In this document: one piece after another, positions 10,201-37,535 of the stretch
How positions within the stretch are numbered: position 1 is the first letter of the stretch
How the letters are laid out: each line of letters starts with the position of its first letter
IMG/VR virus record: IMGVR_UViG_3300037485_000570
Coordinates: 1 to 37,535 of that record
Reading direction: 5' to 3' (one strand)
DNA: 37,535 nucleotides
DNA from: a virus
Lineage: Duplodnaviria > Caudoviricetes
Notes under the pieces: generated by a model
What the model saw: the letters and a program-made list of their open reading frames with translations, nothing else
What the model was told of the DNA's origin: nothing
Database searches by the model: none
Position numbers and translations under genes: made by a program

Positions 10201-13200
10201 CCTGCTGATATTCCTGGCGGGCCACATCCTGGCGATGTCAAAGCTGCAACGGCACCGGACGGCATTGTGTATATGGTGGCATCCAACATCAGCGAGGCGG
10301 ACGCTCGCGGGCTGGTTCTGCACGAGGTTGGTGTGCATGTCGGCATGGAGCAGATGCTTGGGAAGGACGTTTTTCAGTCTGTCTTGGGTCAGTTGGATGA
10401 CGCGATCATGCGCGGCGATGATTGGGCGCAGGCGGCTCGTGATGCCGTTCCTAAAGGGACAAATCCGGCGCACGTTCGGGAAGAGCAGCTGGCCTACCTG
10501 GTGCAGAATGCGCCCGACCTGATAGCTGCTGCCAAGGATGCCGGTGCTCGTGAGCGATTGGTTGCTTTGTATGACGCCATCCTTGCGGCGGTGCGTGCCT
10601 GGGCTTATCGCACGTTCGAGTTTGCCCGGGAGCGTATGACGCTGACCGAGGCCGATTTTCGCGCGATGGCTGTGGCTGCGCTGCATGATGCTGTTCGCCG
10701 TGGTGAGCGTGCTGGTGTTGGGGCTATGGCTCCGGCTCCGGCTGCTCGCTCGGTTGGTGGGTTGGCTGATGCTTACACAAGAGGTGGCGATCAATTATCA
10801 GAGGCTTTGTCTGATATAGAGGCTCTCGTCGCCAAGTATAAGGATGAATTTCCTTCCTACTATAAAGGCTCATTGCCTGATGCCAATCGTGGCGCGGCTC
10901 GTATTGTTGAGAAATACTGGAACGAACTATCCGGTCGGACTCAGGAGTTTATTGGGCCGCGCGTTGCGCGCGACTGGGAAACGGGAGAGCAGATTCAGGC
11001 TGTTGATAGTGTTCGCGGTACTCATATTTTTGATTTGTATCAGGAACTTGAGAACCGAGAGTTTGTCAGCAACGGTTCCGTTGGCGGCGCGCAGTTGTTT
11101 GCTCTGGATGGTGGGCAGACTGCGACCGCTTTTGATGCGCAGGCAGCATTTGAGAAATACGGCGGGAATGGTGATATTGATGAATCGACAGACATCACTG
11201 CAAAATCAAACGCATTTTCTGACATGGCAGAGGCTGATGGTTATAGCGTTGCTGGGCGTGGCGATAAATACCTGACTATAAAAAAATTCTTTGGGAAAAC
11301 TGAGGATGGGTACGATAAGGAAGTTATCTTAAATGTCAGAATTTCCGATCATTCAAATATAAACCGCGCGCAACATTTTGGCGAGCTTGATATAAATATT
11401 GCCCCTGACGACGGGCATCAACGGCATACGTTTAAAAACGCTCTGGATATAATTCGCTCCGCTTATGTTGACGAAGATTTGAAAACTGTTATACCTGGTT
11501 CTTCTAGCGTCAGTCTTTACCAGTACTCTCGCGGCTCAGTGCCAGATCCGTCTACATCTAAGGACGAGATGAAATCGGCGGACGAGGCCGTCAAGCGCGC
11601 AAAGTCTTATGCTTCCGTGCTGAGGGCTGCTGCTGACAAGCTGGAAAACGATGCGCAGGCTGCTGCGGCCATGCGTGCTGCGCTGCCGGACATTACGCCA
11701 CAAGAGATTGACGATCTTCTCGGTCAGCTTCGCAAACAAGTAACGGGGCTGCGGTCTATGGCTCGTGCTACTCGCTCGATGCTGGACGCGGAGGGCACTG
11801 CGGCTGGTATGCAGGACGAGGCCATGCGCGCTGCAGATATGCTGGCTAATAATTTGCAAATGGCGGCGGCAATCGAGAAGCGCAACGCGGCGCTGAACCT
11901 GAACGTTCGCCTGAAGGCTTCATCGTTTGTGAACCAGTTCCGCGACAAGGGTCTGGATTTTGAGGGCTTTGCTGCGCTGTTGGCTGGCAGTCAGCGCGTT
12001 CGCTCTGGTGCTCGGTTATCGGTCGATGCTGAGTACAAGGGTTTTCGTGGTGAGTGGATGGGCGGCATGATTGCCGACATCGAGAAGCTGGGGCTTTGGC
12101 GCGAGTTTGTTGACGGGGCTTTTGACCGGGACATCTACGACGCTTTGCACCGGATGGGGACAGAATCGCCGGACTTCACCGGACTTCCGAAGGAAGCGGT
12201 CGATCTGGCAAAAGTGGTCAACAAATACCAGACCGATGCACGCAATACGCGGAACAGGTTTGGCGCTTGGATTCGTGACCTTAAAGGGTACATCACTCGT
12301 CAGTCGCACGATATGTTCAAGATCAGAGACGCTGGTGAGCAGGATTGGGTCGCTTACGTCAAGGAGCGCATTGACGTTGCCAAAATGACCAGGCTCGGGC
12401 TGATCTCGGAAAATGATCCGATGAGTTCGCTTCGCACAATGTACGACGACTTCGCGGCTGGCGTACACATGAAGGCGGTGGCGGGTGAGGATGACACTGC
12501 TGCGTTTGGTGTTGGCTCCAATCTTGCCAAGCGGGAATCCGTCAGCCGGGTTCTGTACTTCAAGGATGGCATCGCTGCGTTTGAGTATAACGAGCGCTTT
12601 GGTCAGGGTCGTCTAGCTGACAGCGTGCTGTCCGGTCTGGAGGCTTCGGCGCGTTCCGCTGCCCTGTTGAAAACCCTGGGGACAAATCCAGAGGCGACAC
12701 TGACTCGGCTCTTAAATGAGTACGAGAACAGCCTGGTCGGTGATCCTGCTCGTCGGTCAAAGTTTCGCACGCAACGCGGCGCGATTATGAATATGCTGGC
12801 GCAGGTAGATGGTTCCACGCTTATTCCCGGAAACGTCACGGCGGCAAAGGTTGGCTCGTTTGTGCGCGCATGGACGGCGATGACTCGTCTGGGTGGCGCG
12901 CTGATTTCGTCGTCTACTGATCTGGCTGGTTATGGTGCAGAGCTTCGCTATCAGGGGAACAAGAATCTATTTTCCGGCGTGCTGGATGGTATCGGGCGCG
13001 CGACGCAGGGTCGCGCCAAAGGTGAGCAGCGCCAGGTGCTGGCTTCGCTGGGCGTGTTCCATGAATCGGTTATTGGCGCGGTTGCTGCCCGGTTCGATTC
13101 GCCAGAGCTGACCGGGCGAATGGCTTGGGGTATGCAGCAATTCTTCAAATGGAACGGCCTGAACTGGTGGACTGAATCCTTGCGCGATGGAGCGGCTTTG

Positions 13201-14196
13201 TCGCACTCTCACTACTTGGCGCAAAATGCCGGGAAGTCATTTGACAAGCTGAACGGCGAGCTTCAGCGCTTGTTGTCGCTTTACAACATTGACGCTGGGA
13301 AGTGGGACTTGCTGCGACTTGGCACCATGAAAATGGCAGACGGTCGCGCCTACATGACGCCTGACGCGCTGGCTACCGTTCCTCGGGCTGCTCTTGAGAA
13401 CTACATCCAACTGGCGGGTCGGACGGTCAACGATGCGACTGTTCAGAACCTGCTGGACGATTTGTCTCAGGCTTTGCGTGTCATGTCGGTTGATCGCGCC
13501 CACCATGCGGTTCTTGAGCCAAATGCGCGTTCTAGGACGTGGATGCTGCGCGGCACGAAGCCTGGCACGGTTCCCGGTGAGATTCTTAGGTATATCGGCC
13601 AGTTTAAGTCGTTTTCTGTCGCAATGATCCAGATGGTGCTCGGGCGCGAGATTTACGGGCGCGGCTACGACACCTTGGGTGAGTACCTGAAAAAAGGCAA
13701 AGGCGACATGCTGGGTCTGGCCACAATGATCGGTCTGTACACCGCGTTTGGTTATGCGGCGATGTCGATCAAAGACATGCTGAAAGGGCGCGAACCGAGG
13801 CCGGTTGATGATCCACGGACGTGGTATGCAGCAATGGCGCAGGGCGGCGGTCTTGGTTTGTACGGCGATTTTCTGTTTGGTGAATATTCACGCATGGGCA
13901 GGACGTTTACCGCGTCACTGGCTGGCCCGGTAATCGGGAATCTGGATACGCTTGCCGATCTAATGACTCGGGCGCGCAATGGTGACGATATGGCTGGTTC
14001 TGCATTCAAGGCGCTACTAGACAACACACCGTTTATGAACCTGTTTTATCTGCGCCCCGTTTTGGACTACCTCGTTCTGTACCAAATTCAGGAGGCGCTG
14101 AACCCTGGGTTCTTGCGGCGAATGGAGGGGCGTATTATGCGCGATAACGGGCAGGATTTCATTTTCCCGCCATCTCAATTCGCGGCCGGGGTGTAG
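7282..14196 (+). CDS. Giant polyvalent internal virion/ejection protein (2304 aa): ddrB-like ParB, ADP-ribosyltransferase-like, zincin-like and other domains
   Basis: GTPTIAADGRIIGGNGR (ParB-like); FWRWFGDSKVVDAEGRPVVVYHGT...QIKSATGNVGTFD (polyvalent-protein ART); LHEVGVH (zincin-like). C-terminal QFKSF...GGGLGLYGDFLF resembles podovirus large ejection proteins. Confidence 0.8.
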   Translation: MKFYYDDNRGTDQFSLQDFEPSFGAKMGAAVDEAWLESYGPTLTDWLRSRDDGSPKLSAQDAASRIKSSGLRVNLTPKDGEYSSRQLDVILERQRELTKAKDVRERTPWDLGSPLRGVAMFGAGIADPINLATAFFPWTRLVGGMRGIRAATESASAVTRFGARAAVGAADAGISTAVIEPFYYGMRQSLGDDYTAVDSMANIAFGAAFGGGIHSIGGVGVDMFRRAMGMQQPWQANVAPAVTGDAIIPPPASMLMGRDVSVRVGDQYEPGQWAVVDADTLTATVDKADNQFRDRGRAAYQAEITARANALDPALVLSVDTPLMDVGTPTIAADGRIIGGNGRTLFIQRAYEIGKAGDYRAELERRLADLGIDPEAVRGMSRPVLVRRLSMNVDVKRAAMLSNEGGSTAMSPLEQAKVDSERLGDAQLETDADGNLDTAGNRAAIRRWVNEQPEGQRNVLMTEDGRLSASGLQRLRNAVLFKAYGDSPTLARLIEATDVGSRNVAAALARTAGVVADAEGSISRGELHPLSIAADIRMAVEQFDNLRRQGMKVADYLAQIDMLGDPLTPEGRLLLDFMSRNIVSSRRIGDAISGYYAKLQEAGNPGQGDMFGGVSPDKMGMLRAATEAVDSEPLNAAETVAIISPDTREAALGTAVGQAIDGRSIDVVAIVNTDPAVGGTSTAADVVASAERNQQPEAIRTADFDAAAAVDRRLATAPKWDALSDAEAASAEAETLLNDTIKAGDQAFKYSRGDGQDGTPIGDAQIVNVDGVERPALNSNGRTIHPTVEGVRNFWRWFGDSKVVDAEGRPVVVYHGTDKKFTKINLKKGAQGLFWFTSDKSAIEAGEVGAAGKGVIMEMYAKIEGPANWKQYDQLMLDEFKSRGLDGAILPESGGTFVGFIIDKPTQIKSATGNVGTFDPTNPDIRYSREIPLYQQGITGQPAVDVIETSIRQSFGDATDALLQRGQIQIVATPADIPGGPHPGDVKAATAPDGIVYMVASNISEADARGLVLHEVGVHVGMEQMLGKDVFQSVLGQLDDAIMRGDDWAQAARDAVPKGTNPAHVREEQLAYLVQNAPDLIAAAKDAGARERLVALYDAILAAVRAWAYRTFEFARERMTLTEADFRAMAVAALHDAVRRGERAGVGAMAPAPAARSVGGLADAYTRGGDQLSEALSDIEALVAKYKDEFPSYYKGSLPDANRGAARIVEKYWNELSGRTQEFIGPRVARDWETGEQIQAVDSVRGTHIFDLYQELENREFVSNGSVGGAQLFALDGGQTATAFDAQAAFEKYGGNGDIDESTDITAKSNAFSDMAEADGYSVAGRGDKYLTIKKFFGKTEDGYDKEVILNVRISDHSNINRAQHFGELDINIAPDDGHQRHTFKNALDIIRSAYVDEDLKTVIPGSSSVSLYQYSRGSVPDPSTSKDEMKSADEAVKRAKSYASVLRAAADKLENDAQAAAAMRAALPDITPQEIDDLLGQLRKQVTGLRSMARATRSMLDAEGTAAGMQDEAMRAADMLANNLQMAAAIEKRNAALNLNVRLKASSFVNQFRDKGLDFEGFAALLAGSQRVRSGARLSVDAEYKGFRGEWMGGMIADIEKLGLWREFVDGAFDRDIYDALHRMGTESPDFTGLPKEAVDLAKVVNKYQTDARNTRNRFGAWIRDLKGYITRQSHDMFKIRDAGEQDWVAYVKERIDVAKMTRLGLISENDPMSSLRTMYDDFAAGVHMKAVAGEDDTAAFGVGSNLAKRESVSRVLYFKDGIAAFEYNERFGQGRLADSVLSGLEASARSAALLKTLGTNPEATLTRLLNEYENSLVGDPARRSKFRTQRGAIMNMLAQVDGSTLIPGNVTAAKVGSFVRAWTAMTRLGGALISSSTDLAGYGAELRYQGNKNLFSGVLDGIGRATQGRAKGEQRQVLASLGVFHESVIGAVAARFDSPELTGRMAWGMQQFFKWNGLNWWTESLRDGAALSHSHYLAQNAGKSFDKLNGELQRLLSLYNIDAGKWDLLRLGTMKMADGRAYMTPDALATVPRAALENYIQLAGRTVNDATVQNLLDDLSQALRVMSVDRAHHAVLEPNARSRTWMLRGTKPGTVPGEILRYIGQFKSFSVAMIQMVLGREIYGRGYDTLGEYLKKGKGDMLGLATMIGLYTAFGYAAMSIKDMLKGREPRPVDDPRTWYAAMAQGGGLGLYGDFLFGEYSRMGRTFTASLAGPVIGNLDTLADLMTRARNGDDMAGSAFKALLDNTPFMNLFYLRPVLDYLVLYQIQEALNPGFLRRMEGRIMRDNGQDFIFPPSQFAAGV

Positions 14197-14210
14197 CGTT
14201 TTTCATATCA
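14192..14210. promoter_or_regulatory. 19-bp operator-like site overlapping a putative tail-fibre promoter
   Basis: TGTAGCGTTTTTCATATCA. TAGCGT-17 bp-TAGAAT with extended -10 TG. Confidence 0.5.
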
Positions 14211-14243
14211 TGTTGCTAGAATCTCACTGTTCGAGGGGTTGCG

Positions 14244-15758
14244 ATGACCGTTAGTACATCCGTTTATAAAGCAGGGCCTTACGCTGGCTCCGGTACGACC
14301 GGGCCGTTTACGGTCACGTTTCGCTTTTTGGCAAATTCTCATTTGCGCGTAATAAAGACCAGCACGACTGGCTCTGAGACTACGCTAAATCTTGGTGTTG
14401 ATTATTCAGTGACCGGGGCTGGTGGCGCTTCCGGCACAGTCACTCTCACGTCGCCATTGCTTACCGGCGAGAAGCTGACAATCGTTCGGAATGTTCCATT
14501 GACGCAAGAAACCGACTATGTGTTCGATGATTCATTTCAGGCTGAATCTCACGAGCAAGCGCTCGACAAGCTGACTATGATTACCCAGCAGCTGGCTGAA
14601 GAAGTCGACCGGGCTGTTAAGGTGTCGCCGTCATCGACCGACGACCCGGATGCCTTGATTGCCTCTATCAAAACGTCCGAGCAGAATGCGGCGGCTTCTG
14701 CTGCGTCTGCTGCGGCATCGTATGACCAATTTGATGACAGGTATTTGGGCGCTAAGACAAGCAATCCTACCTTGGATAATGATGGCAATGCTTTACAGGT
14801 AGGAGCGGAATATTGGAACAGTGTGTCTAATGAGCGTCGCACATGGACTGGCAGCGCATGGGTTTCTTCTATTACAGTGGTTCCTGATAATAGTGTTACA
14901 ACTACTAAACTGGCTGATGCGTCGGTGACAACTGCGAAGCTGGCTGGTGCGTCGGTGACAACTGCGAAGCTGGCTGATGGTGCCGCAGTTGGGGCAAAAT
15001 TAGGCTCAAAGATTCAGTCAATTTCTGCCTCGGTTTCTGGTAATGCTTTAACTATTTCTGCGTCATTGCTTTCTTTGGACTTTAGAAGCACAACATTAGG
15101 CTCCGGAACAGTAACGACTGTTACCGGAACCCCTGCCAATTTGGTCATTTCGTCAGGTTCTACATTAGGTACTGTAAATGCGGTGCAATCTGATATTGCT
15201 GTATTGGCAATAAATAATGCAGGCACGATTGAACTTGCTGCGGTAAACCTTGCGGGGGGCACTCGGCTTGATGAAGCTAATTTGATTACTACAACTGCCG
15301 AGGGTGGGGCAGGAGCGGCTGATAGCTCAACCGTTATTTACTCAACTACTGCACGAACGAACGTAGCTTATAGAGTTGTTGGGATTATACGCTCGACACA
15401 AGCAACAGCAGGAACTTGGGCGACTGCGCCGAGTTTGATTCAAGGGGCTGGTGGACAAGCTATAACTGCAATGGGTAGTATTGGCTATGGTCAGACTTGG
15501 CAGGATGTTTCAGGAAGCAGGACTCTCGGAACGACTTATTACAACACTACAGGGAAGCCGATTCAGGTTGCCGTTTCTGCAAGCTGTTCAAGTGGAACGG
15601 GCGTAATGACAGCAACTGTAAACAGTCTAGGTATCCAGTCCAATTCTGCTGCGGCTGCATTTAATACGACTATGGTTTTCATAGTTCCGGCTGGTGCTAG
15701 TTACACAAGTGACATTACAGCCACTAAAGTTTTGTCGTCTTGGTATGAACTTCGTTAA
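14244..15758 (+). CDS. Tail fibre protein
   Basis: T7 gp17-like N-terminal anchor (GPFTVTFRFL...HEQALDKLTM), FDDRYLGAK linker, C-terminal GYGQTWQDV...YYNTTGKPIQV...WYELR receptor-binding-type end. Confidence 0.9.
   Translation: MTVSTSVYKAGPYAGSGTTGPFTVTFRFLANSHLRVIKTSTTGSETTLNLGVDYSVTGAGGASGTVTLTSPLLTGEKLTIVRNVPLTQETDYVFDDSFQAESHEQALDKLTMITQQLAEEVDRAVKVSPSSTDDPDALIASIKTSEQNAAASAASAAASYDQFDDRYLGAKTSNPTLDNDGNALQVGAEYWNSVSNERRTWTGSAWVSSITVVPDNSVTTTKLADASVTTAKLAGASVTTAKLADGAAVGAKLGSKIQSISASVSGNALTISASLLSLDFRSTTLGSGTVTTVTGTPANLVISSGSTLGTVNAVQSDIAVLAINNAGTIELAAVNLAGGTRLDEANLITTTAEGGAGAADSSTVIYSTTARTNVAYRVVGIIRSTQATAGTWATAPSLIQGAGGQAITAMGSIGYGQTWQDVSGSRTLGTTYYNTTGKPIQVAVSASCSSGTGVMTATVNSLGIQSNSAAAAFNTTMVFIVPAGASYTSDITATKVLSSWYELR
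14886..15005 (+). repeat. 30-bp coding tandem repeat in tail fibre (xxSVTTAKLA, about 4 units)
   Basis: DNSVTTTKLA DASVTTAKLA GASVTTAKLA DGAAVGAKLG; the middle two units are near-identical in DNA. Confidence 0.85.
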
Positions 15759-17413: not shown

Positions 17414-17944
17414 ATGGACCCGGTTTCTATTGCTATGACTCTCGCGCCCTACGCGCCCAAAATTATCAAATGGCTTTCTGGTAGCGATAAAGCCGAGCAA
17501 GCGGCAGAGCAGGTCGTCCAGGTGGCTCAAGCAATCACCGGGAAAGACGACGCTTTGCAAGCTGTTGAAGCGATCAAGGCAGATCCGGCTCTTGCGCTTC
17601 AGTTTCGTCAGTCCGTTATGGCGAACGAGCGAGAGTGGGATGCTATGTATTTGGTAGACCGGCAAAACGCGCGCGCACGCGATACAGAGTACGTCAAAGC
17701 TGGGCGGCAAAACTGGCGCGCCGATGTTCTAGCTGTTTTGGCCGTGGGTGGGCTTGTAGTTTGCGTTTGGTTTATCGCTCGTGACGCTGATCTTCCTGAA
17801 CGTGCGGTCAATGCCATTATGTTTGTGGCTGGCGTTCTGGCTGCGGCTGTTCGTGACGTTTACTCGTTTGAGTTCGGCTCAAGTCGTGGCAGTCGTGATA
17901 AAGACAACGTTCTTGCATCTATGCGAAACAAGGGAGGCGTATGA
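17414..17944 (+). CDS. Holin (GTA/3TM-holin-like)
   Basis: DRQNARAR motif, two C-terminal TM helices and FEFGSSRGS; adjacent to the endolysin. Confidence 0.7.
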   Translation: MDPVSIAMTLAPYAPKIIKWLSGSDKAEQAAEQVVQVAQAITGKDDALQAVEAIKADPALALQFRQSVMANEREWDAMYLVDRQNARARDTEYVKAGRQNWRADVLAVLAVGGLVVCVWFIARDADLPERAVNAIMFVAGVLAAAVRDVYSFEFGSSRGSRDKDNVLASMRNKGGV

Positions 17945-17995
17945 CGCAAAGAGTACCGGCTGCCGTAGGCAGTCCGGTGCAGCGACGGGTTAGCC
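17939..17995 (-). mobile_element. attC-like integron recombination site (57 bp; R' and L' boxes degenerate)
   Basis: Minus strand: GGCTAAC-CCGTC-GCTGCACCGG-ACTGCCTACGGCAG-CCGGTACTC-TTTGC-GTCATAC, i.e. R'', 5-nt spacer, L'', central hairpin, L', R'. Confidence 0.7.
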
Positions 17996-18028
17996 GGAAC
18001 CCTTGACGCCGGCAAAACGAAAGGAAAT

Positions 18029-18277
18029 ATGGAACCGAACCTGAACTTTGGCGAAGCACTGCAACTGCTCAAAGACGGCAAGAAGGTTGCGCGACGCGGC
18101 TGGAATGGCAAGGGCCTGTGGCTTGAACTGCAGGTGCCCGATGCTCACAGCAAGATGACCCTGCCCTACATCTTCATGAGCTACCCGGCCGACGCGCAAA
18201 ACACGCCGGGCGCCCGCGTGCCGTGGCTGGCCTCGCAGACGGACGTGCTGGGCGACGACTGGCACCGCGTGCCCTAA
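18029..18277 (+). CDS. tad2: DUF2829 / Tad2-like Thoeris anti-defence (signal-sponge) protein
   Basis: NFGEALQLLKDGKKVARRGWNGKG and PWLASQTDVLGDDW are DUF2829 hallmarks; GAAAGGA RBS. Confidence 0.8.
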   Translation: MEPNLNFGEALQLLKDGKKVARRGWNGKGLWLELQVPDAHSKMTLPYIFMSYPADAQNTPGARVPWLASQTDVLGDDWHRVP

Positions 18278-18287
18278 ACGACGCAAT

Positions 18288-18314
18288 GCCGGCACCGCGT
18301 GTATTGGTGCCGGC
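18288..18314. terminator. GC-rich hairpin at the convergence of late and early transcription units
   Basis: GCCGGCACC-9 nt-GGTGCCGGC perfect 9-bp stem; no U-tract, so terminator function is uncertain. Confidence 0.4.
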
Positions 18315-18493
18315 TAACAGGGATCAGTGTCGTTCGCTGCGCTGGGGTCGAGCAGATCGGTCAGTAGTTTCTCGGCTGCGATAATGGTGGATGCCAGGAA
18401 AATAACTGCTTGTTCTTTCTTGCCTGTTTCGAGCAGATTGGGCAGTCGTCTGGCGGCTTCTTGAATTTTGATTAAATGTTCGGCTTGGTTCAT
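18314..18493 (-). CDS. Hypothetical protein (59 aa, not in ORF track)
   Basis: MNQAEHLIKIQEAARRLPNLLETGKKEQAVIFLASTIIAAEKLLTDLLDPSAANDTDPC; AAGGA RBS; TAG stop lies inside GTTAGCC. Confidence 0.65.
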   Translation of the reverse strand: MNQAEHLIKIQEAARRLPNLLETGKKEQAVIFLASTIIAAEKLLTDLLDPSAANDTDPC

Positions 18494-18512
18494 GGCTGTC
18501 CTTGGTCAGTAG

Positions 18513-18578
18513 TTATCTGGTCGGGTATCGTTTGTTTTCACGCGCTTTGCGGCGGTCGTTGCGGGTTGGTTTGGTCAT
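18513..18578 (-). CDS. Arg/Lys-rich 21-aa peptide
   Basis: MTKPTRNDRRKARENKRYPTR; GAGAGG RBS; fills the gap between two operon genes. Confidence 0.45.
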   Translation of the reverse strand: MTKPTRNDRRKARENKRYPTR

Positions 18579-18581
18579 TTC

Positions 18582-18866
18582 TCACCTCTCGTCCCAAATG
18601 TCGAGTTCAGCGCAAACCGCCTCCATTCCCGGCCTCGCCTTATAAGTGACCAGTTCGCCACGATCATCAATGGCCGTGACGCGGCGGTAAGCCTGGCCAG
18701 GAAGAATGCACCACTTATCAGCCTCGGCTGCCTCGACTAATAGGCGCTGGTCTGCTGTTTCGCAATGCGCGGCTGTGTATCCAGACTTCAGCCACTGTGC
18801 GCTGGCGTCGCAGCGGTGCTGCTTTTTTGCAGTCACAATCTTGTCAGACAAAATTCTGTCAGTCAT
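18582..18866 (-). CDS. Hypothetical early protein
   Basis: ATGA-coupled operon gene; AKKQHRC...CILPGQAY motif is common in phage small proteins. Confidence 0.7.
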   Translation of the reverse strand: MTDRILSDKIVTAKKQHRCDASAQWLKSGYTAAHCETADQRLLVEAAEADKWCILPGQAYRRVTAIDDRGELVTYKARPGMEAVCAELDIWDER

Positions 18867-19111
18867 TTTTCACCCCTTGCTAGTATGGCTTCCTCAATAT
18901 CTTCAGCGTCTCTACCAGCGGCCACTTCGCTACAAAGTGCGGCACGTAGGGCATCGGCTTCGGAGCCGAGAAAATCAAAAAGGGTCTCAAACCTGTTAAT
19001 CCAAATGGTGTCTGTAATTTTCCCTTGTTCATTTGCCGCTTCGAGCGTGATGATTGCGGCCTCAATCGTTGTTAGCGCCTGTTGTGCGGCTTCTCTAAGT
19101 TTGTCAGTCAT
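18863..19111 (-). CDS. Hypothetical early protein
   Basis: Overlapping start/stop with both neighbours. Confidence 0.7.
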   Translation of the reverse strand: MTDKLREAAQQALTTIEAAIITLEAANEQGKITDTIWINRFETLFDFLGSEADALRAALCSEVAAGRDAEDIEEAILARGEK

Positions 19112-19434
19112 TCTTCATACCCTTCCATTATCAAATCAGCACATTCATGTAAAGCATCGAAAGCAAGTGGGCTTCGTCCGTTTGCTTCTGCGTAACATAG
19201 CTCGGCACACTCTTTGCGTACTTTTGCTTCAAAAGTTTTTTCGCGCTCATCATGCGAAGTCTGGTCAGACATCACTGCTCTAGCCAATGCTTCACAAGTT
19301 GTCAGCTTATTTTTCAGCTTGTCGTGCAGCGGTTCCCAGTATTCCATGTCAACAGAAGTTGTTTCAAAGTTTGGGTTTTCGACTAGCTGCTCAATTAGTC
19401 GCAGCTTTATTTCAAGCCTGTCGTCTTTACTCAT
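19108..19434 (-). CDS. Hypothetical early protein
   Basis: Overlapping start/stop with neighbours; CEALARAVMSDQ motif. Confidence 0.7.
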   Translation of the reverse strand: MSKDDRLEIKLRLIEQLVENPNFETTSVDMEYWEPLHDKLKNKLTTCEALARAVMSDQTSHDEREKTFEAKVRKECAELCYAEANGRSPLAFDALHECADLIMEGYEE

Positions 19435-19642
19435 TTTGCCCCCATTCCTGTTCTAGTGTAATCGTTGGCGATGCGTCACAAGAGTCGGCCAGGTATGTGA
19501 TCGTTGCCACAAAAATCACACCAATGATTGCAACGACGCGATTTTCTATCGACCATTGACTTGGGTCTATTTGCCAAAAGACAAACGATGTTGTCAGGTA
19601 CGATACCGCGATTGGCAGTATTACAAGTTTCATCATTTTCAT
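19427..19642 (-). CDS. Small two-TM membrane protein
   Basis: AAGGA RBS, MKMMKLVILP start, two hydrophobic segments around DPSQWS. Confidence 0.65.
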   Translation of the reverse strand: MKMMKLVILPIAVSYLTTSFVFWQIDPSQWSIENRVVAIIGVIFVATITYLADSCDASPTITLEQEWGQNE

Positions 19643-19655
19643 TTCATTCCTTTTC

Positions 19656-19712
19656 ACATAACTTAACGTTTAAGCGGATTCGCTACGCTCACCACTGAAC
19701 TCGGCGTTAGGC
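19656..19712 (+). mobile_element. attC-like integron recombination site (57 bp)
   Basis: ACATAAC-TTAAC-GTTTAAGCGG-ATTCGCTACGCTCA-CCACTGAAC-TCGGC-GTTAGGC: R''/L''/L'/R' layout with an extra base in L''; intergenic. Confidence 0.8.
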
Positions 19713-19886
19713 CACACGGCCCCGCTTCCACGCGCGCAGCCAGTACGGCAGCCGCAGTGCCAGCGCCATCAAGATAAACGGCAAAGCCCACCATCTGGAT
19801 TCCGACGCCAACCACACGTTGGCAAGCACTATTTGCGCCCAGAAAGCCATATCTTCGGCAGTTGTTGGGTTTCCCATCATTTTCAT
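19707..19886 (-). CDS. Small Trp-rich membrane protein (59 aa, not in ORF track)
   Basis: MKMMGNPTTAEDMAFWAQIVLANVWLASESRWWALPFILMALALRLPYWLRAWKRGRVA; AAAGGA RBS; TAA stop lies inside GCCTAAC of the attC-like site. Confidence 0.7.
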   Translation of the reverse strand: MKMMGNPTTAEDMAFWAQIVLANVWLASESRWWALPFILMALALRLPYWLRAWKRGRVA

Positions 19887-20281
19887 TTCATTCCTTTCAA
19901 GTATCGTTTAAGCCTCATTGAGGGCATTCTTCTGTGGCGCGTCTTTTTTTCTTGGTTCTGTGGCGCGTCTTTTTTTCTTGGATAGAATTGGTTAATGAAC
20001 GGCGAATCAATTTGAGTGTAATCGCGCTTCGGAATTCTTGGATGGTAAACCCAACAAAAAATGGAGCAGCCTCCTCGATACACTTCGCTTTGCAGGTAAA
20101 AAACGCGCCTGTAGCCAAGGAAGTTCATAAAGCGCCACCAAAATGTGCGCTTGCTTATGTTTATGTCATTCATTTTTGCTTTCAGCGCTTCAAGTAGTTC
20201 GCGCTCATCTGCTCGTACTTTTGCTTCGAGTAATTCAGCGAAGCGAAACATCTGTTCTGTGCGCTTGCTTATGTCATTCAT
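19883..20281 (-). CDS. Hypothetical protein, apparently chimeric
   Basis: AAAGGA RBS; internal duplication of its own start (MNDISKRT / MNDINISKRT). Confidence 0.6.
   Translation of the reverse strand: MNDISKRTEQMFRFAELLEAKVRADERELLEALKAKMNDINISKRTFWWRFMNFLGYRRVFYLQSEVYRGGCSIFCWVYHPRIPKRDYTQIDSPFINQFYPRKKDAPQNQEKKTRHRRMPSMRLKRYLKGMK
19930..19981. repeat. Perfect 26-bp tandem duplication
   Basis: TTCTGTGGCGCGTCTTTTTTTCTTGG x2. Confidence 0.9.
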
Positions 20282-20291
20282 TTCATTCCTT

Positions 20292-20531
20292 TCAAGCGGG
20301 AGGCTCTAATCGAGCATCCCAATTTTTTGAGAAACTGAACGGCAGGCGACCGTAAATCATGGCCAGCCTGCGTTCCTCTGTGCTCAGTTCGCACTGGCGT
20401 ACTGCCTTCCTGGGCGGTGGCGGTGTCACGCTGTCCTGTTTGACCACGGTTTGCTTCACCACGGCCTGTTTGACCACGGACTGCTTCACCACGGACTGTT
20501 TCGCCACAGGTTTACCCATCAAATAGATCAT
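20292..20531 (-). CDS. Hypothetical protein with 5-aa repeats (xVVKQ)
   Basis: VAKQ SVVKQ SVVKQ AVVKQ TVVKQ, encoded by 15-bp repeats at about 20436-20510. Confidence 0.65.
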   Translation of the reverse strand: MIYLMGKPVAKQSVVKQSVVKQAVVKQTVVKQDSVTPPPPRKAVRQCELSTEERRLAMIYGRLPFSFSKNWDARLEPPA

Positions 20532-20732: not shown

Positions 20733-21572
20733 TCAGATGGGCGAGTCATCGGTCTGCGGCATCTCGGCGGTCTGCGGCATCTCGATCACGTTGTCGTCTT
20801 GCGCTTGTTCTGGCTTTGACGGCGCTGCATCGGCTACACGCTGCAGCCTGCTCGGGCGCTTCGCTGCTGGCTCTGCGGCTGGCTCTGCGGCTTCTTGCTG
20901 GGCTGGAGCGGTTTCCGTGGCGGGTGGCATAAAAAGATCGTCGTCCTCGCGGATCACACCGTCGATGTCAGTGCTTAGTGGCAGACGCTTGGCATGGCGG
21001 CGCACCACGGTTTTCTTGGCCATCTCAGCAAAATCGGTGACCCAGGGGCCGGACTGACCGGAGCGGCTGCGGCGGCGTATCGCTTCGACATCCTCGACCG
21101 ACATCACCTCGCGGGACTTTTCGCCGTCCTTCATGGTCACGATGCTGTACACGGCGATCATCTTGCCCCGGCTGGCCAGCGTCGGCTTGTGAGTGATGTG
21201 CTCGTCGTCGCCCAGGCAGAAGTCGAAGCTGTCGTTTTCGTAGACTGCTTGGACTGACCAGGTGCTGATCTCGCCAGAGTTGCGGACTAGTTTCATGATT
21301 CCGGCGACCATCGGCATCCACTGTGCCTGGTCCTTGAAGGTAACGATGGCACCTTCTCGACCGTCCGGCATCAGACCCATCTGCGCGGCTTTTGTGGCGG
21401 CTGCGAACAGCGTCCGGCGGTCAGCCTGCATAAGCTGCGGGTTGGTCTGGACGGCGGTCAGTGTCGTGCGGACAAAGCGTTCGACCGGGACGTGAGACGG
21501 TAGCGCGGCTTTGAATTGTGGAGCCATTTTTTCGATGGCGGTTCGTACTTCTACTACTGCTGTGCTGCTCAT
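20733..21572 (-). CDS. recT: RecT-family single-strand annealing recombinase
   Basis: FKAALPSHVPVERFVR, AQMGLMPDGRE, GPWVTDFAEMAKKTVVRRHAKRLPLS; AAGGAG RBS before ATG 21572. Confidence 0.92.
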   Translation of the reverse strand: MSSTAVVEVRTAIEKMAPQFKAALPSHVPVERFVRTTLTAVQTNPQLMQADRRTLFAAATKAAQMGLMPDGREGAIVTFKDQAQWMPMVAGIMKLVRNSGEISTWSVQAVYENDSFDFCLGDDEHITHKPTLASRGKMIAVYSIVTMKDGEKSREVMSVEDVEAIRRRSRSGQSGPWVTDFAEMAKKTVVRRHAKRLPLSTDIDGVIREDDDLFMPPATETAPAQQEAAEPAAEPAAKRPSRLQRVADAAPSKPEQAQDDNVIEMPQTAEMPQTDDSPI

Positions 21573-21597
21573 ACTTGCTCCTTGGTTGGTTGGTTGG

Positions 21598-21616
21598 TGT
21601 TGCGATTTTCGCATCA
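21598..21616. promoter_or_regulatory. 19-bp palindromic operator upstream of recT
   Basis: TGTTGCGATTTTCGCATCA, adjoining a minus-strand TATACT (21616-21621). Confidence 0.7.
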
Positions 21617-21623
21617 GTATAAC

Positions 21624-22580
21624 CTAGTTTTTGCGGCTTGTGTTGGTTATTCTCATGTTTCTGTAGCCTTTTCGTCCACCATACGTCTGGCCGACCATGT
21701 CGGCGGTGATCACTGTTGGCGGCGTATCCGCGATCATACTGGCGCTTATTTTCCAGCCTTGTCCGATGACTTTCTCGGCATCGCCAATTGCGGTAAGCAG
21801 CATTGCTTTGGCGATCTCGGCGTCGTCTTTGGCGTTGTCTGCCAGCGCTTTGGCCGTTTTGTAGTTGGTCACCATCGTTTCGATATTCGCATCGTTGCTG
21901 GCATCAAGGACTTTACCTGGGTCAGCGTACTGGTGCAGCCGGATCACTGCCTGGGCATCGTCGGGCATGATTGGCGGCGGTTCCTCACCGGCAGCGACCG
22001 TGCGCCAGAATTCTGCGACCCGGTGACGTATGGCGCGGATCACTTCCTCGTCGCGCTCTCGCTCTATCACTACCGTTCTGTTGCCACCGATCAGTGCGCC
22101 GATGTAAGCGCGCTTGAGACCGGACACGGCCATTTGGTGCTGCACTTGCATTTCGATATGCTCGGGCGCTTCGACCGTGCCGTCGTCGTGCTCGATCCAG
22201 CCGTCGCGGAATGCCATGTAGTCGACGTTTTTGATCTCAAGGTGCGCTGCTCCGTCCGGGTGATTGGTGATCAGAAAGTCAAAAGAGGCTCCGATCCGTG
22301 CGTCCGGGTCGCGCATGTATTCTTTCATCGGGCGTATTTCCCATCCACGCTCCTCGGCGATGCCGTGCGCGATGGCGGACTCCAAGCGGTTGCCCCACTT
22401 CATGCGCTCGTTGGCTTTGAATTCCGGCGCTGTGCCGCTGTGTTTGCGATGCCACAGCTCGTAATGGGTCACGTAGGGCGACATACCAAAAAGGGCGGCA
22501 GATTCGGTGCTGGTCACGTCACGCTGGCGGTGCGCCAGCCATTCTGCCTCGGTAGTGTATTGGATTACTTCTGTTGTCAT
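21624..22580 (-). CDS. YqaJ-like (lambda-type) exonuclease
   Basis: EWLAHR...TSTESAALFG.SPY, WGNRLE, GASFD, LEIKN, QVQHQMAVSG; paired with RecT. Confidence 0.9.
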   Translation of the reverse strand: MTTEVIQYTTEAEWLAHRQRDVTSTESAALFGMSPYVTHYELWHRKHSGTAPEFKANERMKWGNRLESAIAHGIAEERGWEIRPMKEYMRDPDARIGASFDFLITNHPDGAAHLEIKNVDYMAFRDGWIEHDDGTVEAPEHIEMQVQHQMAVSGLKRAYIGALIGGNRTVVIERERDEEVIRAIRHRVAEFWRTVAAGEEPPPIMPDDAQAVIRLHQYADPGKVLDASNDANIETMVTNYKTAKALADNAKDDAEIAKAMLLTAIGDAEKVIGQGWKISASMIADTPPTVITADMVGQTYGGRKGYRNMRITNTSRKN

Positions 22581-22765
22581 TTCATGCACTCCCAATACTT
22601 GCCGTTGAATACTGGCTTGCCACCGTTTTTTACGCACAATGCGCGGTATTCTTCTGATGCAGGGTCTTTAACAGTGAAAACACTATGCGCGAATGCAAAA
22701 AATACAAAACTAGAAGCCACCGCAATTACCACTGTAATTACAGTTTCAAAAATAGCATCTTTCAT
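22577..22765 (-). CDS. Small membrane protein
   Basis: N-terminal TM helix and C..GG...WEC motif; ATGA coupling. Confidence 0.65.
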   Translation of the reverse strand: MKDAIFETVITVVIAVASSFVFFAFAHSVFTVKDPASEEYRALCVKNGGKPVFNGKYWECMK

Positions 22766-24210: not shown

Positions 24211-24229
24211 CGTTGTTATAATCACAACA
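24211..24229. promoter_or_regulatory. 19-bp operator overlapping the extended -10 (TGtTATAAT) of the cro-like gene
   Basis: CGTTGTTATAATCACAACA. Confidence 0.6.
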
Positions 24230-37220: not shown

Positions 37221-37535
37221 ATGATTCTGGATCGTGAAAATGCTTTCAGCCAGTCGCAGGCTTTGACCGGCACTACTCTTGTGCCATCGACCGATGTGAT
37301 TGATCTGAGCCAGATTCGCCAAGTTGGTGTTGGCGGTGATCTGTATTTGGTTCTAAATTTTGAAGTTGCTGCTGGTGGCACTACGCCCACCATCACCGTG
37401 GCTTTGCAGACCGATGATAACGTCGGCTTTGCAAGCGCGGCGACGCTGATCACTTACATGAGCGCTGTTACCACTCCTGGTGCCAGTTCTCAGTTGGTGT
37501 TTCCGTTGCCGTATCAGGGTTTGGAGCGCTTCATT
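37221..37535 (+). CDS. Capsid cement protein (Bbp16-like), 5' part; continues across the origin to 349
   Basis: GAGGT RBS, ATG 37221, frame open to the window end. Confidence 0.75.
   Translation, partial: MILDRENAFSQSQALTGTTLVPSTDVIDLSQIRQVGVGGDLYLVLNFEVAAGGTTPTITVALQTDDNVGFASAATLITYMSAVTTPGASSQLVFPLPYQGLERFI
37298..37535. repeat. Terminal direct repeat, copy 2
   Basis: Matches 1-238 with one substitution. Confidence 0.95.

Follow-up and report, generated by a model that had tools for sequence, protein, structure and literature searches.

Back-to-front attC cassettes in a podophage genome and their probable exchange by a host integron integrase

Introduction

How does a phage that encodes no integrase of its own come to carry the recombination sites of integron gene cassettes, and do such sites move genes? 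The question is raised by virus record IMGVR_UViG_3300037485_000570 (Caudoviricetes), whose whole stretch of 37,535 bases, 97% complete, was analysed and is called the window below. Two of its segments, site 1 (17939..17995) and site 2 (19656..19712), resemble attC, the site at which the integron integrase IntI recombines cassettes, and both are inverted relative to their genes. An original prediction had proposed that phages of this group draw accessory genes from a pool of reverse-orientation cassettes, mobilised by an integrase supplied in trans. We find that the underlying observation is real and that its reading is supported with qualifications. The sites are decayed attC of back-to-front cassettes, sister phages differ by whole cassettes at G|TT, and we put at roughly two in three the probability that a host IntI moves such cassettes between phages sharing a host.

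Results

Two decayed attC sites opposite to transcription

An attC site is described by two pairs of boxes, R''/R' and L''/L', the R boxes carrying the cores ..AAC and GTT.. respectively. The sequences, coordinates and 57-bp lengths first given for the two sites (site 1 read on +, site 2 on -, in the direction of their genes) were exact, and the words listed as common to them, ACGC, AG, GG, CGTAG, TCCG, CG and GTTA, are exactly those found. Aligned without gaps, the sites are identical at 29 of 57 positions, which was matched by 1 of 100,000 shuffles. They belong to different attC sequence families, so that their equal length is partly incidental.

A covariance model was built from 17 bacterial attC sites without the two seed motifs, after removal of two junk alignment rows and exclusion of eight loci with reversed genes. 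It gave four matches at E<=5 in the window, headed by site 2 and then site 1 (its E-values are rough): site 2 scores 26.4 bits (E 8e-4) on '+', versus 10.5 bits on its gene strand, and site 1 scores 20.1 bits (E 0.019) on '-' and on that strand alone. The asymmetry comes from an extra base in the paired L''/L' boxes, which is present at both sites, with mismatches. The top strand is thus antisense to the genes at both sites, which sit in convergent operons, as first described. Two attC pattern grammars, the second at its threshold, missed both sites; the covariance model caught both. Covariation in the bacterial attC alignment (0.283 versus 0.107 shuffled) was not counted as support, because the aligned sites were picked for pairing.

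Both sites bear marks of decay. Site 2, with its top strand on '+', has R'' ACATAAC, R' GTTAGGC and a crossover G|TT at 19706|19707; both cores are present, and its L boxes are partly mismatched. Site 1, with its top strand on '-', has R'' GGCTAAC, L'' GCTGCACC and a degenerate R', GTCATAC, in which the invariant GTT has become GTC; its L'/spacer is damaged and 1 nt short, the intact family member in L002 measuring 58 bp. The claim that the sites differ in their stems while keeping pairing therefore stands in part only, failing at GTC and the damaged L' of site 1 and at the mismatched L boxes of site 2. In intact relatives the L''/L' boxes pair fully, and the full attC fold was the minimum-energy structure for 3 of the 4 that were folded (L002, L032, L161). 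We conclude that sites 1 and 2 are real attC sites, both decayed, and that site 1 is chimeric.

As described originally, each site begins over a stop codon and is followed by a stretch resembling a ribosome-binding site (RBS) and a gene. Site 1 holds the TGA of a 176-aa gene, the last of the lysis block (17414..17944, +), and the R' of site 2 the TAA of a 59-aa gene (19707..19886, -). The 71-aa gene that starts directly behind the R'' of site 2 (19427..19642, -) belongs to no PHROG or Pfam family. The two sites are 1.66 kb apart, on opposite strands and in separate operons, and do not form one array.

A cassette shared by unrelated phage families

The strongest single result was obtained at a third locus. 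The window has there a bare G|TT target without attC (24226..24228, -), and a TATAAT hexamer on '+' precedes it by a few bases. In L161, a sister phage whose RecT is 95% identical to that of the window, a 382-bp insert is found at 24227|24228, co-directional with the local operon. It consists of a Tad2-like gene with an attC in front, whose R'' complements the start core at 7 of 7 positions; the junction overlap is 3 bp and the cassette ends are exact. This cassette is letter-identical (100%) to one in the L013 and L016 arrays. L013 is part of record G004, an unrelated phage whose capsid and portal families differ from those of the window, the proteins common to both being 6 small accessory ones. 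The empty site was bridged in all four sequencing runs examined, hence the insertion is a gain. The GTT at the target also fits the 5'-GWT-3' consensus of attG sites given in the text of Loot et al. (10.1101/2022.09.11.507474).

Presence and absence of a cassette at site 2

At 19706|19707, an identical 327-bp insert is present in L028, L250, L251 and L263, that is in 4 of the 9 haplotypes compared; the other 5 are empty. The insert starts with TTCGGC and contains a reversed 76-aa gene, with its own intact attC at the end; the R'' of that attC, GCCGAAC, complements the unusual start core GTTCGGC at 7 of 7 positions. The polymorphism is also visible in sequencing runs, X7 showing the insert ends and X5 bridging the empty form. 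Since the empty form retains the body of site 2, the crossover end is fixed, as the extra-base asymmetry predicts.

The Tad2-like cassette of site 1

The cargo of the site 1 cassette is a Tad2-like (DUF2829) gene of 82 aa (18029..18277, +). Its protein matches Pfam PF11195 at 2e-22 (80 bits, for a cut-off of 25) and is similar to solved Tad2 chains (E 3e-13 to 8e-11); from its sequence, it is predicted to be an immune-signal sponge. Behind the gene, between the convergent operons, lies a 9-bp GC-rich inverted repeat (18288..18314) that is absent from the list of a terminator scan; a similar hairpin stands behind Tad2 in the L013 cassette. The cassette-start core GTTAGCC (18312..18318, -) complements the R'' of site 1 at 7 of 7 positions and contains the TAG of a converging 59-aa gene. 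With GGCTAAC at the other end, these bounds are the core pair of the intact Tad2 cassette in L013. The end of the same converging gene (18319-18350) contains words that recall the loop and L' box of an attC and may be the remnant of an earlier one.

In sister phages, a 362-bp segment made of two thirds of site 1, the leader, the Tad2-like gene, the hairpin and the core (17961..18322) gives way to 41 other bases. This replacement, with 17939-17960 retained, is seen in L058, L250, L251 and L263 and also in two sequencing runs, X7 showing the joint and X12 a loose end. Run X5 has no cover over the Tad2-like gene, which proves nothing alone. A donor for the cassette of the window was not found, the nearest relative being in L268 (83%), and the Tad2 cassette as a whole is absent from the plasmid collection. 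At L268:1340-1650, GTTAGCC precedes and GCCTAAC follows the gene, with no attC body, and this may be a domesticated cassette scar.

Polarity, cores and cargo in viral and bacterial contigs

A consistent gene-antisense orientation had been expected of homologous sites, and it was found. Seeds from both window sites and a pattern scanner gave 109 unique viral sites, of which 86 are reversed, 1 classical and 22 uncalled. Among 107 bacterial sites obtained with the site-2 seed (91 loci, 11 with short flanks), 18 are reversed, 64 classical and 25 uncalled. Reversal thus concerns 86 of the 87 called viral sites versus 18 of 82 in bacteria (Fisher p 1e-28, the sites not being independent); counted per locus, reversed to classical is 36:1 in viruses and 7:45 in bacteria, with 3 ties. 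One small-gene family accounts for 26 of the 64 classical bacterial sites, and half of the reversed ones (9/18) sit among phage-type genes. A second, unrelated seed of class-1 type yielded 80 sites in 31 loci, with 53 reversed, 13 classical and 14 uncalled, that is 53 of 66 called sites reversed; 10 of the 13 classical ones are in records with their own IntI.

Between R'' and the core on the far side of the gene, 34 of 51 pairs match, versus 5 of 51 within the same attC (permutations: mean 5.2, maximum 16). A second count, with 8 loci excluded, gave 31 of 43 pairs, versus none of 43 for the site's own R'. In 31 of 93 viral cases, the stop of the neighbouring gene lies inside the R' core, so that the upstream gene stays whole when an insertion occurs at TAA|C.

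The prediction that phages of this group draw on such cassettes has to be both widened and narrowed: unrelated phage families share the pool, and its use is not group-wide, attC sites being found in only 2 of 74 non-sister RecT relatives, where 6 of 6 sites are reversed. As to cargo, 20 of 61 reversed cassette proteins match PHROGs, including methyltransferases and Mom, and 41 have no PHROG family; a Pfam search of 30 of these proteins adds Tad2-like proteins and the Acb2/Tad1 hairpin. Reversed cassettes of PHROG 2428 occur in L001, L002 and L047, and in the L047 member an Acb2/Tad1 hairpin domain exceeds the cut-off of Pfam.

Other arrangements were seen along the way. The complete phage G003 (L354:4218-4283 and 11444-15099), which has no tyrosine recombinase, has attC sites in either orientation, every one of them antisense to the genes around it. 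In bacterial genomes, L067, L074, L088 and L110 have reversed arrays or sites amid RecE, SSB, Mom, methyltransferase and portal genes, and prophages may therefore be a reservoir. A family of genes of 67-72 aa, widespread in Betaproteobacteria and others, reads 43 bases into a site-2-family attC, often with a broken R' (L066, L072, L073, L079, L083, L090 and 20 more bacterial sites).

Integrase and possible hosts

IntI is described as recombining the bottom strand in its folded form, with the cut at AA|C (PMC11023631; 10.1101/2022.09.11.507474). In the reversed sites, this recombining strand is the coding strand. No match to the tyrosine recombinase family (PF00589) was found at E<=1 in the window, and intI was not found there in cis; for attI, no model-based search was made. 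A full IntI is present in 5 of 48 viral records (L363, L364, L369, L383, L388), of which four read classical and L364 is ambiguous, and in none of the reversed-array records among these 48. Bacteria with the same motif differ: 26 of 42 genomes carrying the site-2 motif have IntI, versus 0 of 14 controls.

Phage PH101 offers a link to experiment. In the text of Qi et al. (PMC9892861), IntI1 recombined its attC1 and attC2 on the bottom strand. We examined the orientation of this phage (NC_029094; L361:30919-32987): the top strands of its three attC are on '+', and all surrounding annotated genes on '-', so they are reversed. Since IntI is frequent among bacteria that share the attC motif, since none of the reversed-array phages tested has it, and since IntI1 acted on sites that turn out to be reversed, a host IntI acting in trans is the likely enzyme. 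The original proposal of an integrase supplied in trans is thus confirmed for the lack of one in cis, and its positive half stays at this strength.

Genome setting

By PHROG search, the window encodes a podophage tail, capsid, terminase, primase and RecE/RecT. Its late operon (+) and early accessory operon (-) converge near 18300. Equal sequence is found at its two ends (50-200 and 37350-37535; 118-176 = 37415-37473), which suggests a circularly permuted complete genome. Among cultured phages no close relative of the window was found, with a single weak match to site 2. At least half of the sequence words of the region are present in 13 other sequencing runs, 12 of freshwater metagenomes and one of a fungus metagenome, the run with the largest share being one of sediment, which may be the source; in RNA runs, they occur in small shares only. 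The gene borders of the early region have repeated RBS/start modules of 21-23 bp (19631-19653, 19875-19897 and 20270-20292, as well as 22576 and 23129), and some of the points at which sister phages have exchanged sequence fall on these modules.

Discussion

Several results weigh against the movement of back-to-front cassettes by a host IntI. Folding of sites 1 and 2 is no better than that of shuffles (z -0.9 to -1.7), and their minimum-energy folds lack the R box and do not give the full attC hairpin, so that on paper the sites of the window itself would be poor substrates. At the site 2 indel, 9 of 10 bases match across the two ends, meaning that a microhomology deletion would yield the identical product, and the flank haplotypes do not settle gain versus loss of the 327-bp unit. 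At site 1, the allele boundary falls at CCGGC inside the hairpin and the other end lies 4 bases past the core; as these junctions are not at G|TT, the exchange was not a clean IntI reaction, and the cassette was gained or lost by some other path. This was probably RecET-type annealing, for which the RecT- and RecE-like genes of the window (20733..22637, -; PHROG 148 and 434) are a candidate cause. Presence/absence breaking at G|TT, as had been foreseen, thus holds for the 327-bp unit at site 2 and the 382-bp unit at 24227, and not for site 1. More broadly, most variation of the early region is without attC, an attC was nearby in none of 59 distinct Tad2 loci, Tad2 relatives being mostly outside cassettes, and in the L003/L008 family identical attC bodies switch partner on the R'' side too, hence by homologous exchange inside the repeat. 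The virulent phage TJE1 has classical polarity. Among Burkholderiales-order genomes with a related capsid gene, 1 of 5 has an IntI match, which contains an internal stop, and no host was assigned from this comparison. Finally, gene strands came from a purpose-made gene caller, validated on the window alone; two genes there, that of the tail fibre and one of 172 aa, escaped it.

A first rival reading is that the enzyme, with the same cassettes and the same crossover, is phage-borne, an IntI or Xer-like recombinase of another co-infecting phage. The near-fixed polarity in phages is what one would expect of a phage platform equipped with a docking site, and 6 of 49 viral records do have a tyrosine recombinase. 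In the stretches scanned, however, all six stay below the IntI cut-off, and 9 of 14 near-complete viral records have no tyrosine recombinase at all. The lack of IntI in the reversed-array records points the same way; moreover, the window and G004 have no recombinase-like protein in common, and the attC families are identical to those of IntI-bearing bacteria. We therefore regard a phage-borne enzyme as unlikely. Somewhat less probable still is that the sites are fossils of old captures, present differences being due to homologous or microhomology recombination of RecET type, for which the hairpins serve as repeats. Decay of both window sites, the presence of RecE and RecT, the imprecise site 1 junctions, the microhomology at site 2, the swapping of attC bodies on both flanks in one family and the RBS repeats that mark exchange points too all speak for it. 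Homology cannot produce the L161 insertion, however, with its 3 bp overlap, exact ends and complete identity to the cassette of an unrelated phage, and cores that are complementary across the gene, as 65 of 94 pairs are, imply that the cassettes passed through a circular form. It is very improbable that the sites are terminators, repetitive extragenic palindromic (REP)-like repeats or RNA processing hairpins merely resembling attC. Their intergenic position would suit such elements, and attC are thought to hold weak terminators, as the text of PMC9892861 has it; but no Rfam family matches site 1 or 2, neither was listed as terminator-like in the scan, the attC model scores them on one strand, and the indels break at G|TT. 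The distinction from REP elements and terminators that the original prediction depended on is thereby largely borne out.

If a host IntI does move the cassettes, the process may be pictured as follows. IntI would fold the coding strand and cut it at AA|C, excising cassette circles from the DNA of a co-infecting phage or of a prophage, and these circles would integrate into a second attC or into a bare GWT target. Insertions landing at a TAA|C stop or downstream of a promoter would be favoured by selection, since they disrupt nothing and the gene is transcribed together with its neighbours. Owing to the reversed polarity, a phage cassette would not be expressed in a host integron, nor a host cassette in a phage array. 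Once inserted, the sites would decay, and RecET-type exchange would move pieces too, as probably happened at site 1. A bolder extension, which we offer tentatively and hold to be rather less probable than its opposite, is a mirror-image integron economy: a large back-to-front pool of phage genes, rich in counter-defence, whose cassettes a host IntI would move between unrelated phages, with mutual silencing of the two pools.

Integrons have been regarded as libraries of bacteria and, more recently, as repositories of genes against phages. Should phages trade cassettes of Tad2-like, Acb2/Tad1-hairpin, Mom and methyltransferase genes through IntI, the shuffling device of the host serves the other side too, and a site-specific route is added to phage mosaicism. 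As two thirds of the reversed cassette proteins are without a PHROG family, the cassettes would also be a cheap way to candidate counter-defence genes. A new cassette would arise when an attC lands at a TAA|C stop and excision follows at the next such stop; this would bear on how genes come by their attC sites, a question still open. The reversed-cassette reading is directly testable with existing attC assays.

Relation to known systems

The text of Qi et al. (PMC9892861) reports 21 cases of phage attC in 10,705 genomes and calls the PH101 and TJE1 arrays typical; it defines a cluster of attC sites lacking an integron integrase (CALIN) as at least two attC within 3 kb and no intI. The sites of a CALIN normally lie on the same strand. 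The phages described here resemble theirs in having attC without intI and methyltransferase cargo; gene-antisense polarity, natural G|TT indels and phage-to-phage transfer do not figure in that text. A systematic reversed polarity was not found stated in the literature on phage attC sites, as far as its text goes; the figures or the Dryad annotation file of PMC9892861 could show strands.

The L161 insertion is like the attG insertions outside integrons in the text of Loot et al. (10.1101/2022.09.11.507474), with a bare GWT target, a resident promoter that drives expression and later attC loss; those were in bacterial chromosomes in the laboratory, whereas L161 is a natural case in a phage genome. 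The Tad2-like protein, above the PF11195 cut-off and similar to solved Tad2 chains, is like the Tad2/DUF2829 anti-Thoeris sponge as presented in the text of 10.1101/2023.05.01.538930, except that it is carried as a reversed cassette. Tad2 proper binds gcADPR and inhibits Thoeris, activities that the protein of the window may share.

With integron gene cassettes, the units have in common the R''/L''/L'/R' anatomy, the extra bases on one arm, the G|TT crossover and the core complementarity across the cassette. Unlike in these, the attC stands before the gene, the recombining strand is the coding strand and the cargo consists of phage accessory genes; the classical cassette, with the gene on the top strand and the attC behind it, is found at neither window site. 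Nor does the window show the intI, attI or Pc platform of an integron, attI not having been searched with a model. The window sites thus work like integron cassettes and behave as such in the cassette tests; the window is not an integron, and the sites are not classical in polarity.

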